NCBI GenBank assembly: GCA_003220265.1
Contig: QHRW01000115.1
Location: forward strand, 1,391 to 65,390
Length of the DNA: 64,000 nucleotides
Direction of reading: 5' to 3'
From: Candidatus Rokuibacteriota bacterium
GTDB lineage: Bacteria; Methylomirabilota; Methylomirabilia; Rokubacteriales; CSP1-6
Shown: positions 41,127 through 45,102 of the stretch, one piece after another
How the letters are laid out: each line of letters starts with the position of its first letter
How positions within the stretch are numbered: position 1 is the first letter of the stretch
Translations under genes and position numbers: made by a program
Notes under the pieces: model-generated
Told to the model about the DNA's origin: nothing
Database searches by the model: none
The model's input: only the letters and a program-made list of their open reading frames with translations

Positions 41127-41555
41127 TCACCTCCGCGTGAGGGTCACCGGCTGGCAAGGCGTCAGGCGGCTCGGCGGAACGCTCGGCGCCAGCGTCTCCC
41201 GCATCGCATCGCAGAGCGCCGCCGTCGGCATGACGACGCCCCAGGCGTCCTCCGCTTCCACGGCCCAGGCGTAGCCGCCGGCGGCCATGGCGGCCGCATA
41301 GCAGTCGGTCAGGACCCTGGTGCGCGTGAAGGGCTGGCGCTCGGGCGCCGTGGAGGTCTCGGCCGCGCGCTCGGCCGAGCGGCGCTCGCGGCACGTCGCT
41401 TCCGTCGTCGCGTAGACGAAGTAGCGCCGCCCGAGGTACGTCGCGACGTCGAAGGCGTACACCGAACGCGAGCCCGGCGGCAGCGGAGCGGGGGAGGCAC
41501 AGCCGACCAGCCACGCCAGCAGCGCGACGGCGGCGCCGCGCGCGGCGCGCGTCAG
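41127..41555 (-). CDS. Hypothetical lipoprotein, probably initiated at CTG
   Basis: The frame of ORF 41127..41462 stays open upstream and encodes (M)TRAARGAAVALLAWLVGCASP, a perfect lipoprotein signal. No ATG or GTG is available. CTG 41555 forms a CTGA overlap with the upstream stop. Confidence 0.5.
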   Translation of the reverse strand: MTRAARGAAVALLAWLVGCASPAPLPPGSRSVYAFDVATYLGRRYFVYATTEATCRERRSAERAAETSTAPERQPFTRTRVLTDCYAAAMAAGGYAWAVEAEDAWGVVMPTAALCDAMRETLAPSVPPSRLTPCQPVTLTRR

Positions 41556-41737
41556 GGACTCTCCACGCAGAAGAGGAAGAACAGCGGGCGCGTGCTGCCC
41601 TCGTTGGGATCGCTGAGACAGCGCGTGCGCGGCGCCCGGCTCTGGCGCGGCGGCGGTTGCAAGCCGCTCGCGCAGCCGGTGACGGCGGCGAGGAGGACCA
41701 GAAGGAGCAACCGCCGCGTCCAGCTCACGCGCGGCAT
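41552..41737 (-). CDS. Small lipoprotein (61 aa)
   Basis: MPRVSWTRRLLLLVLLAAVTGCAS lipobox. This is the tail of the spurious 487-aa ORF 41552..43015. Confidence 0.55.
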   Translation of the reverse strand: MPRVSWTRRLLLLVLLAAVTGCASGLQPPPRQSRAPRTRCLSDPNEGSTRPLFFLFCVESP

Positions 41738-41785
41738 TTTATCGCCCGCCGGGGCTGGTCGGAAGGTGTATATAGCGGGCCAGCC

Positions 41786-43063
41786 ATGGCGCGGGGATTC
41801 GTGACGACGTCGCCGAGCGAGGCCGTGCAGCGGCTCGCGCCGGGCATGAAGGTGCTGCTGCCACCCGGCTGCGGCGAGCCGCGCGCGCTCGTCGCCGAGG
41901 TGTGTCGGCAATCCGAGCGGCTGCGGGATCTCACGCTGATCGGCGGTATCCACCTCGGCGATTTTCCATGGGCGCGGCCCGAGCACGCCGCGCTCCGCTA
42001 CGCCACGTGGCACATGTCGCCGCGGCTCGAGGACGCGCGGCGCCGCGGGCGCGTCGACTTCGTGCCGCTGCGCTACTTCGATCTCGTCACCGAGTTCGCG
42101 CGCGGCGGCCGCTGGGCGCCCGACGCCGTCCTCGTGCAGACCGCGCCGCCCGACGCGCGCGGCTACCTGAGCCTGGGCGTGTCGGTGAGCGTCGCGCTGC
42201 CCGCCGCGCGCACGGCGCCGCTGGTGATCGCGCAGGTCAATCCGCGTATGCCCCGCGCGCGCGGCAACGGCGTCCTGCACACGAGCCAGGTGGACGTGTG
42301 CGTGGAGGTGGACGAGGCCCTCGCGGAGTATCCGCCGCCCGTCGTTGGCGACGTCGAGCGCGCCATCGGCGGCCACGTCGCCGCGCTCGTGCCCGACGGG
42401 GCCGTCGTCCAGGTCGGCGTCGGCGCCATCCCGCAGGCGGTGCTCGAAGGCCTGGGCGGTCACCGCGATCTCGCCCTGCACTCGCTGCTGGTGGACGCCG
42501 GCGTGGCGCTCGTCGAGCGCGGCGTGGTGACGGCGGCGCGCAAGAGATTCCATCGCGGCCGCCTGGACCTGGCCGAGGCCATGGGCACGCGGCGTACGTT
42601 CGACTTCCTGCACGACAACGTCGCCGTCAACATGGAGTCCTCGGCCTTCACCCACGATCCGGAGGTGGTGGCGCGACTCGACCGCTTCGTGGCGATCAAC
42701 TCCGCGCTGGAGATCGATCTCACGGGCCAGGTCACCGCGGAGAGCCTGGGCGCGCGGCAGGTGGCGGGCATCGGCGGCCAGTTCGACTTCGTCCTGGGCG
42801 CCTCGCGCTCGGCCGGCGGGGCCTCGATCATCGCGCTGCCCTCGACGGGTGGCCGCGACGGCGCGCTGTCGCGCATCGTTCCGCGCTTGACGACCGGCGC
42901 GGCGGTGACGACGCCGCGGTTCCTGGCGGACTGGGTGGTGACGGAGCACGGGGCGGCGCGGGTGCGGGGATTGTCGGATCGCGCGAGAGCCACGGCACTG
43001 ATCGCCGTGGCCCATCCGCGATTCCAGGGAGAGCTGGAGCGTGCGCTCGCTACTTCTTCTTAG
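41786..43063 (+). CDS. Acetyl-CoA hydrolase/transferase family protein (4-hydroxybutyrate CoA-transferase-like)
   Basis: MARGFVTTSPSEAVQRLAPGMKVLLPPGCGEP..., INSALEIDLTGQV, GIGGQFDF. Internal ATG of ORF 41657..43063. Confidence 0.8.
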   Translation: MARGFVTTSPSEAVQRLAPGMKVLLPPGCGEPRALVAEVCRQSERLRDLTLIGGIHLGDFPWARPEHAALRYATWHMSPRLEDARRRGRVDFVPLRYFDLVTEFARGGRWAPDAVLVQTAPPDARGYLSLGVSVSVALPAARTAPLVIAQVNPRMPRARGNGVLHTSQVDVCVEVDEALAEYPPPVVGDVERAIGGHVAALVPDGAVVQVGVGAIPQAVLEGLGGHRDLALHSLLVDAGVALVERGVVTAARKRFHRGRLDLAEAMGTRRTFDFLHDNVAVNMESSAFTHDPEVVARLDRFVAINSALEIDLTGQVTAESLGARQVAGIGGQFDFVLGASRSAGGASIIALPSTGGRDGALSRIVPRLTTGAAVTTPRFLADWVVTEHGAARVRGLSDRARATALIAVAHPRFQGELERALATSS

Positions 43064-43280
43064 CGAGGTCGATCTGCTCGAAGATCTCCTCGTCGGTCGG
43101 GAAGCGGTAGTTGTCCTTGTTCGTGTAGGCGGTCCGGCCGTCGATGAAGACCTCGAAGATCCCGCCCACGCCTTCCTTCAGGCGAGCGGTGATGCCGTAC
43201 TTGTCCTTGATGGAGGCCTGCAGACTGGAGGCCTGGGGGAGGTAGTTTCACTCCCCGCAATACAGGATCTCGATGTCCAT
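43050..43280 (-). CDS. SelW/Rdx-family selenoprotein (76 aa) with in-frame TGA (Sec) at 43248-43250
   Basis: Own translation: MDIEILYCGE-U-NYLPQASSLQASIKDKYGITARLKEGVGGIFEVFIDGRTAYTNKDNYRFPTDEEIFEQIDLAKKK*. It has a CxxU redox motif, and GGGAGGG lies 6 nt upstream of the ATG. The ORF track misses it because of the TGA. Confidence 0.75.
43215..43233 (-). other. Putative bacterial SECIS stem-loop downstream of the UGA
   Basis: The mRNA GGCCUCCAGUCUGCAGGCC starts 16 nt after the UGA. It forms GGCCU/AGGCC plus a C-G pair, with an apical loop containing GU. Confidence 0.4.
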
Positions 43281-43331
43281 GCTCAGCCCTCCCGCGGATG
43301 ATGTGGTAACGCCATTGTATATGACGGTTCC

Positions 43332-44197
43332 ATGACAAAAGGGGATTCCGTGCTCGCCCTGATCGACACCGACCCGGGCATCGACGACGCCCTGGCCCTG
43401 CTGTACGCCTGGGGCTCGCCCGGGTGCCGCCTGGCCGGCCTCACCACCGTGGCCGGCAACGTGGAGGTGGCCGACGCCACCCGTAACCTCTTTCGCCTGC
43501 TGGCGCTGCGGCGGCCGGCGCCCATCCCCGTGGTCGCCCAGGGTGCGGCCCGGCCGCTGGCGCGCGCGCTGGTGACGGCTAAGGGCTACCACGGCGACGA
43601 CGGCCTCGGCGGCCTCCTCGACTGGCCGCCGGTCGAGACGACGCTGTCGGACCTCGATGGCGCCGACTTCATCCTCGACGCCCTGCGTCGTGCGCGCGAG
43701 CCACTGACCCTCATTGCGCTGGGCCCGCTCACCAACGTCGCGCTCGCGCTGGCGCGCGACCGCGTCACGCTCGGGCGCGTCAGTCGCCTCGTCATCATGT
43801 CGATCCCGAGGCGGCGGCCCAGGTGCTGGAGGCCGGGCTTCCGATCGACCTCGTGTCGCTCGATGCCACGCGCCAGGCCCTGCTGCCGCGCGGGGACCTC
43901 GAGGCGACGCTGGCGCGGCGCCCCGGGCCGTTCGCGACCCGCTGCGCGGCCTTCACGCTGCGCGGCTTCAGCATGGACGCGGCGCGCGGCACGCCGGGCA
44001 TGGTGCTGCACGATCCGCTCGCCGTCGCCGTCGCGCTCGATCCGACGCTGGTCACGTGGGACGAGGCGCGCATCGCCGTCGCCGCCGACGGCACCAGCCG
44101 CCGCGCGCCGGGCGCCCCGAACTGTCGCGTGGCCGGCGTCGTCGACGTCAAGCGCGTGGTCGGCAATCTGCTGGAGCGCCTGTGCCCCGCGTCCTGA
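43332..44197 (+). pseudogene. Nucleoside hydrolase (IunH/RihA family) disrupted by an internal deletion and frameshift near 43799
   Basis: The N-terminal part reads LALIDTDPGIDDALALLYA...LTLIALGPLTNVALAL...RLVIM. The conserved GG...AEFN segment is missing. The sequence then continues in another frame as VDPEAAAQVLEAGLPIDLVSLDAT...VLHDPLAVA... to the stop at 44197. Confidence 0.7.
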
Positions 44198-45102
44198 TCG
44201 TCGGCTCGGCCAACGTGGATTTCACCGTCGCGCTGCCGCGGCTGCCACGGGCGGGCGAGACGGTCAGCGAGGGCACGCTGCTCGTCGCCCGCGGCGGCAA
44301 GGGCGCCAACCAGGCGGTGGCAGCGCGACGGCTCGGCGGCGAGGTGCGGCTGATCGCCTGCGTGGGTGACGACGCCTCCGGCCGCGAGGTGAAGACGGCG
44401 CTGGCCGGCGAGGGGATCGCCGTGGAGGCGATCGCCACGACGTCGAGCGCGGCCACCGGCACGGCGCTGATCGTGGTGGACGCCGAGGGCCGCAACCAGA
44501 TCGCCGTCGCCCCCGGCGCCAACCGCGCGCTGACGCCGGCCGACGTGGACGCGCGCGCCGCCGACTTCGCCTGGGCCGAGGTGGTCGTCTGCTCGCTCGA
44601 GGTGGAGCTGGGCTGCGCGCGGCGCGCGTTCGAGCACGCGCGCCGCCACGGCGCGCTCACGATCCTGAATCCGGCGCCGCTGCCCGACCGCGGTCTCGAC
44701 TTCCTCGATCTCGCCGACTACGTCACGCCCAACGAGAGCGAGGCCGCGCGGCTGACCAGCCTGCCCGTGCAGGACGCGGACAGCGCGGCGAAGGCCGCCG
44801 CGGCCATCCGCGCCCTCGGCGCCATGCGCGTGATCGTCACCCTCGGCGCGGCGGGCGCGCTTGCCGACGGACCCGAAGGTCGCGTGCACGCGCCGGCGCC
44901 GCGCGTCACCGCGGTGGACACCACGGGCGCCGGCGACGCGTTCAACGGCGCGCTGGCCGTGGCGCTGGCCGAGCGCCGCTCGCTGGGCGCCGCGCTCGCG
45001 TTCGCCAACACGGCGGCTGCGCTCGCCTGCACCAAGCGCGGCGCCCAGCCCTCGATGCCGGTGCGCGCGGAGGTCGAGCGGAGCCTCGCCCGCTCGTCCT
45101 GA
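44182..45102 (+). CDS. rbsK: Ribokinase
   Basis: GTG start. VPRVLIVGSANVDF...GGKGANQAVAA...PNESEA...DTTGAGDAFNGALA. Confidence 0.85.
   Translation: MPRVLIVGSANVDFTVALPRLPRAGETVSEGTLLVARGGKGANQAVAARRLGGEVRLIACVGDDASGREVKTALAGEGIAVEAIATTSSAATGTALIVVDAEGRNQIAVAPGANRALTPADVDARAADFAWAEVVVCSLEVELGCARRAFEHARRHGALTILNPAPLPDRGLDFLDLADYVTPNESEAARLTSLPVQDADSAAKAAAAIRALGAMRVIVTLGAAGALADGPEGRVHAPAPRVTAVDTTGAGDAFNGALAVALAERRSLGAALAFANTAAALACTKRGAQPSMPVRAEVERSLARSS

Follow-up and report, generated by a model that had tools for sequence, protein, structure and literature searches.

A probable SelW-like selenoprotein gene with an in-frame UGA codon and a candidate SECIS hairpin in Rokubacteria

When an in-frame TGA lies only ten codons behind the start of a short bacterial frame, does it end translation, or does it specify selenocysteine (Sec) inside a longer protein? 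This question is raised by a locus on the minus strand of a 64,000-nucleotide stretch of Candidatus Rokuibacteriota DNA, the whole of which is called the window here. A first-pass annotation had proposed at this place a hidden selenoprotein gene with an ATG at 43280, a GGGAGGG 6 nt upstream of it and a TGA at 43250-43248, and all three lie on the minus strand exactly where it had put them. Sequence and translation give ATG 43280-43278 as codon 1, preceded by the Shine-Dalgarno-like GGGAGGG (43293-43287, minus strand), and TGA 43250-43248 as codon 11, after which the frame stays open for 65 codons up to a TAG at 43052-43050. The coding sequence (43280..43050, minus strand) thus has 76 residues, namely 75 sense codons and one putative Sec codon, and its product reads MDIEILYCGE-U-NYLPQ…AKKK; the peptide that had been predicted past the TGA is identical to the translation of this interval. 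The TGA closes a redox-type motif, C8-G-E-U11 (43248..43259, minus strand; TGC GGG GAG TGA). In orthologues, purine-rich motifs of the GGAGG type occupy the same place as GGGAGGG, and an ATG stands at codon 1 in 88 of 93 distinct sequences. At the 3' end, the 14-nt overlap with a convergent CoA-transferase gene was also found, the plus-strand ORF ending at 43063 (TAG) and the minus-strand gene at 43050. The interval 43280..43050 is a real gene, and the earlier observation is confirmed. We propose that it is very probably a functional gene for a 76-aa thioredoxin-fold protein of the Rdx/SelT-SelW-SelH group ('SelW-like' hereafter), in which UGA11 is read as Sec by means of a SECIS element and whose product is most likely a thiol-dependent oxidoreductase.

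The conservation of the UGA codon bears most directly on this proposal. A search of 40 related genomes gave 34 strong matches, each of which (34/34) holds exactly one in-frame TGA, and a scan of GTDB species genomes added 80 more loci, nearly all of them labelled Candidatus Rokubacteria, Rokuibacteriota or Methylomirabilota. The codon that follows YC-x-E is TGA in 110 of 110 orthologous loci and TGC or TGT in none. These loci represent 96 distinct gene sequences from Rokubacteria/Methylomirabilota MAGs, with protein identities reaching down to ~51%. Among 61 aligned orthologues C8, E10 and position 11 are invariant, and within the ten codons upstream of the TGA the invariant residues are M1, Y7, C8 and E10. 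The TGA pattern at codon 11 is far beyond chance. Orthologues of the Cys form were sought inside the clade and none was found among the 110 loci, Cys forms occurring only in distant homologues. One might suppose that the TGA is a nonsense mutation of a former Cys codon, either in a pseudogene or through an assembly or sequencing error, as TGC becomes TGA by a single-base change and the source is a MAG of 200 contigs. However, since the same TGA stands at the same codon in 110 of 110 independent assemblies from an order-level clade, we regard this explanation as hardly credible and in practice excluded; the frame downstream of the TGA is, moreover, open and under purifying selection, and synteny is preserved.

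Do the two sides of the TGA belong to one protein? For the profile searches the Sec (U) of the product was written as C. The product matches the Pfam Rdx family PF10262, as had been claimed, with 52.4 bits against a curated cut-off of 22.6 (E 6e-14), and the NCBIfam model TIGR02174 (CXXU_selWTH, SelT/SelW/SelH) with 49.8 bits against a cut-off of 34.2 (E 3e-13). Both matches cover residues 3-71 and therefore span the TGA; in PF10262 these residues fall on profile positions 2-73 of 74. The equivalog cut-off of NF041051 (SelTWH_Campy), which is 88 bits, is not reached by the product (73.6 bits); the SelW-like protein is a relative that lies outside this equivalog group. An AlphaFold2 model, built on the 61 orthologues, has a pLDDT of 95.6 and a pTM of 0.83, and shows the order b1-a1-b2-b3-b4-a2, that is a strand (3-8), the CxxU loop, a helix (14-28), three strands and a C-terminal helix. 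In this model C8-G-E-U11 is part of the loop that joins strand 3-8 to helix 14-28.

When the model was compared with the PDB by Foldseek, the best 23 matches were all SelW-related/Rdx structures, including 2fa8, 2oka, 2obk, 2ojl, 2p0g, 3dex, MIEN1 (2ljk) and mouse SelW (2npb). Query-normalised TM-scores for the Rdx structures run from 0.68 (mouse SelW, 2npb) to 0.90, and thioredoxins rank after them with TM-scores of 0.37-0.54. A sequence search of the PDB likewise finds only Rdx proteins, namely MIEN1, Atu0228, SAV_2001, the V. cholerae SelW-related protein and mouse SelW. The CxxC cysteines of these homologues align with C8 and U11 (YCTQC in Atu0228, YCEPC in MIEN1), so that solved Cys-containing relatives place a Cys opposite the U, a comparison that the first-pass annotation had asked for. 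As the profile matches and the fold span both parts, the ten codons that precede the TGA form one domain with the 65 that follow. The concern that the two halves might be unrelated is not borne out either, as neither a frame shift nor a pair of unrelated halves is seen in any orthologue.

Public gene calls present a different picture of this gene. In them the orthologues are fragments of 47-64 aa that start at Leu14 to Leu20 (e.g. LQASIK…, LPQASS…), and these entries are what favours an explanation in which the true gene starts only past the TGA (~39-64 aa) and the upstream ten codons are an untranslated leader. However, the 'start' chosen by the gene callers is a UUG that lies within the loop of the candidate SECIS hairpin, often at SECIS loop positions 28-30 (codon 20; window 43223-43221 here), and it is a C/U polymorphism of that loop which creates this false start codon in orthologues. 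At the present locus, where codon 20 reads CTG, the stretch from the TGA up to Val38 offers no ATG, GTG or TTG. The first canonical start past the TGA is the GTG at Val38, and for this reason a stop-to-stop caller gets a remnant of at most 39 codons. The upstream ten codons are, on the other hand, preceded by a conserved Shine-Dalgarno motif and ATG, conserved as protein in the four invariant residues given above, and matched to the Rdx profiles from positions 1-2 onward. They also make up strand b1 of the confidently predicted fold, and a protein that lacked them would have neither the sheet nor the redox motif. A gene confined to the part after the TGA is thus extremely unlikely, and we retain the reading of a single 76-residue protein. 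Some sources already name the orthologues 'selT/selW/selH-like putative selenoprotein' or 'Rdx family protein'. The chief value of the present finding concerns annotation quality, as standard callers either miss the gene or leave a fragment devoid of the redox centre. Counts of the SelW-like protein are therefore too low in an uncultured soil phylum that has been reported as unusually rich in selenoproteins (PMC13188914).

Decoding of UGA as Sec depends on a dedicated machinery, and the presence of its genes in the genome had been named as a check of the proposal. All were found, each with a profile score above the curated cut-off. On one contig, selA (587 bits), selB (380 bits) and tRNA-Sec (66.6 bits) form a minus-strand cluster within ~5 kb (C45:19390-24186), and ARAGORN reports the tRNA as tRNA-SeC with the anticodon tca (UCA). 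The gene selD (345 bits) is on another contig (C87:57985-58938, plus strand). This selenophosphate synthetase gene is itself a selenoprotein gene, with one in-frame TGA at the active site (…SYAACAGU-ASKM…). The genome accordingly holds selA, selB, a tRNA-Sec(UCA) and a Sec-containing selD. Separately, a crude search across the window for other redox-type frames interrupted by TGA returned only junk-like contexts in shadow frames, and its limit on the number of TGA codons made it miss the SelW-like gene itself.

Could the UGA be read as another amino acid, such as Trp, Cys or Gly, by near-cognate or suppressor decoding, or under a reassigned code? One JGI entry, a 75-aa orthologue with W at the TGA, points in this direction, since it implies a code-4 call for the contig concerned. 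Within the window, however, TGA is the commonest stop codon and ends 21 of 31 long ORFs, including that of the adjacent nucleoside hydrolase, from which it follows that there is no global recoding of TGA. A complete Sec machinery and a hairpin of the SECIS type further argue against it. In CxxC homologues the redox Cys stands at the place of the UGA, where either Trp or Gly would destroy the motif; were Cys inserted, TGC or TGT would be expected in some of the 110 orthologues and is seen in none (0). We consider these readings very unlikely, and Sec at codon 11 is preferred.

The remaining element is the RNA signal. A stem-loop, AGGCCUCCA-GUC-UGCAGGCCU, lies at 43234..43214 on the minus strand, inside the coding region of helix alpha-1 (QASSLQA), and consists of 8 pairs and one C.C mismatch. 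The full stretch that the first-pass annotation quoted, GGCCUCCAGUCUGCAGGCC, is present downstream of the UGA and does carry GU in its apical loop, but it begins at an offset of 14 nt (counted from the UGA, its first G is base 15) and not of 16. The apical loop GUC (43225-43223) has 3 nt and is of the GUY type, with G then U at positions 1-2; the spacing from UGA to loop is 22 nt and the predicted MFE is -8.7 to -9.3 kcal/mol. The published bSECIS model describes a loop of 3-9 nt, a stem of 4-16 bp, a UGA-to-loop distance of 16-37 nt and an MFE <= -7.5 kcal/mol; it also places a G among the first two loop bases, the next base usually being G or U (PMC13188914). The hairpin falls within all of these published limits, and it also shows constraint at the RNA level, both of which uphold the SECIS proposed for this place.

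This constraint is strong. The pairs of the stem are kept in 91-96 of the 96 distinct sequences. The stem codons Ala17 GCC, Ser18 TCC, Ser19 AGT and Ala22 GCC have a mean synonymous entropy of 0.02 bits across the same 96 sequences, against a mean of 1.19 bits for 17 codons of like degeneracy (four- or six-fold) in the rest of the gene (Mann-Whitney p=0.0013). The AGT that supplies the G-U of the loop accounts for only ~4% of Ser codons in the window. Within the whole element, free variation is confined to loop position 28, which is C or U. In Cys-containing homologues the sequence of helix a1 is unrelated to PQASSLQ, which indicates that the invariance of this peptide is imposed by the RNA and not by the protein.

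The rare variants of the hairpin keep or strengthen its pairing. One sequence with C31G converts the C.C mismatch into a C-G pair (-12.1 kcal/mol); four variants form a perfect 7-bp stem through a 3'-shifted GGAGGCC arm (-15.3 kcal/mol) and keep the G-U near the 5' side of the loop; and one sequence with A25G changes an A-U pair into G.U. True compensatory covariation is scarce, the element being nearly invariant. When compared with shuffled sequences, the 66 nt after the UGA have a z-score of 0.01, meaning that the stability of the hairpin is not exceptional in a context of 71% GC. As stability alone is unremarkable in such DNA, the SECIS call was based on geometry and on conservation, and the evolutionary evidence is the decisive part. 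An Rfam scan of 43000-43350 at E<=10 gave no model that matches the hairpin and two chance snoRNA matches far below their gathering scores. A second hairpin, GGGAG-UGAAACUAC-CUCCC (43237-43255, minus strand; -9.6 kcal/mol), encloses the UGA in this genome only; it is not conserved in orthologues and was set aside as probably due to chance. The highly conserved hairpin offers a clean example of a Rokubacteria bSECIS, and it could seed searches for further selenoprotein genes in Rokubacteria genomes.

The surroundings of the gene are also well conserved. The convergent plus-strand ORF ending at 43063 is an acetyl-CoA hydrolase/transferase (PF13336, 1.5e-53), and on the other side a divergent gene at 43332-44369 encodes an inosine-uridine nucleoside hydrolase (PF01156, 1.5e-40). 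Among 109 related loci, the CoA-transferase is convergent in 108 and the nucleoside hydrolase divergent in 96, and the full order CoA-transferase / SelW-like / nucleoside hydrolase (window 41657-44369) is kept in 95. Since neither neighbour is co-oriented with the SelW-like gene, its position gives no operon-based clue to function. A promoter scan at the locus returned no promoter-like site, and a single terminator-like match on the opposite strand inside the gene was treated as chance. Opposite the CoA-transferase gene, a 487-codon frame (41552-43015, minus strand) has no Pfam match and looks like a shadow ORF of high-GC DNA. Loci with the same synteny and 70-74% GC occur in MAGs labelled Nitrosotalea, Verrucomicrobiia, Dormiibacterota, Limnocylindria, Acidoferrum and Binatia; Nitrosotalea is an archaeon whose genomes are low in GC. 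Composition and synteny suggest that these contigs are mis-binned or mislabelled Rokubacteria rather than cases of horizontal transfer.

The selenoprotein interpretation is supported by these data, and a mechanism may be pictured along established lines. According to this model, the hairpin that extends from 14 to 34 nt past the UGA, with its apical G-U-Y, would act as a bacterial SECIS. Its apex would be bound by SelB-GTP-Sec-tRNA(Sec), which would deliver Sec to the ribosome at UGA11 in competition with RF2. Actual insertion of Sec at this codon is what the established bacterial Sec pathway would lead one to expect. In the finished protein the C8-x-x-U11 centre would lie at the N-terminal end of helix alpha-1, and the product would most likely cycle, as a small oxidoreductase, between a form with a Cys8 thiol and a Sec11 selenol and a selenenylsulfide form. 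Such a thiol/selenol oxidoreductase activity is suggested by analogy with the chemistry of the Rdx family.

Methylomirabilota have been reported as the phylum with the largest bacterial selenoproteomes, one MAG being predicted to have 63 selenoprotein genes (PMC13188914). With this in mind, one may speculate further that the SelW-like protein of Rokubacteria/Methylomirabilota is an obligate selenoprotein, and that the conserved gene arrangement, tail-to-tail with the acetyl-CoA hydrolase/transferase and head-to-head with the inosine-uridine nucleoside hydrolase, could mean a specific, lineage-wide physiological role. We arrive at this idea because no Cys form appears in the 110 genomes and because hardly any change is seen in the 21-nt SECIS throughout an order-level clade; as a whole we rate it as rather unlikely. 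If it were true, the SECIS may provide a usable signature of SelB-SECIS specificity in Methylomirabilota.

How does this locus relate to known systems? The bacterial SelW-like (SELENOW-like) selenoprotein was reportedly described by Zhang and Gladyshev and co-workers, and the present locus belongs to this long-known family; it is a correction of annotation and not a discovery, and it changes nothing that is known about Sec decoding or the Rdx family. With 48 genes, SelW-like CxxU proteins outnumbered every other selenoprotein family in the Sargasso Sea data set, and the function of the protein is called unclear in the literature (PMC1088965). SelW-like proteins with PF10262 also count among the high-confidence prokaryotic selenoprotein families (PMC13188914). 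The Rokubacteria protein shares with other bacterial SelW-like selenoproteins the domain, the CxxU at the b1-a1 junction and approximately the size, as well as a UGA that would encode Sec, a putative bSECIS directly downstream within the coding region and a presumed redox role. It differs from them as an orthologue group specific to Rokubacteria/Methylomirabilota, with the motif C-G-E-U (C-[GTMA]-E-U across the clade), an almost invariant SECIS, no Cys forms in 110 loci and a score below the cut-off of the Campylobacter-type NF041051.

Among proteins of solved structure, the nearest comparison is with the Cys-containing SelW-related proteins A. tumefaciens Atu0228 (2fa8), V. cholerae 2p0g, B. 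parapertussis 2ojl, P. fluorescens 2obk and S. avermitilis SAV_2001 (3dex). These have the same fold (TM-score 0.75-0.90, rmsd 1.2-2.4 A) at 21-31% identity and the motif in the same place, but the motif is CxxC instead of CxxU in proteins of ~80-105 aa, and their genes have neither an in-frame UGA nor a SECIS. Mammalian selenoprotein W (2npb) and MIEN1 (2ljk) likewise belong to the Rdx family, have a CxxU/CxxC motif and adopt a thioredoxin-like fold. They differ in that the eukaryotic SECIS, which has another architecture, is found in the 3' UTR, and sequence identity is ~19-25%. The known partners of mammalian SelW/MIEN1, glutathione and 14-3-3, cannot be assumed for the Rokubacteria protein. 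Finally, the putative Rokubacteria SECIS resembles that of E. coli fdhF, and bSECIS elements in general, in being a stem-loop immediately 3' of the UGA within the ORF and in its apical G followed by U, exposed where SelB would bind, whereas it differs from the fdhF element in its sequence, its minimal 3-nt loop and its internal C.C mismatch.
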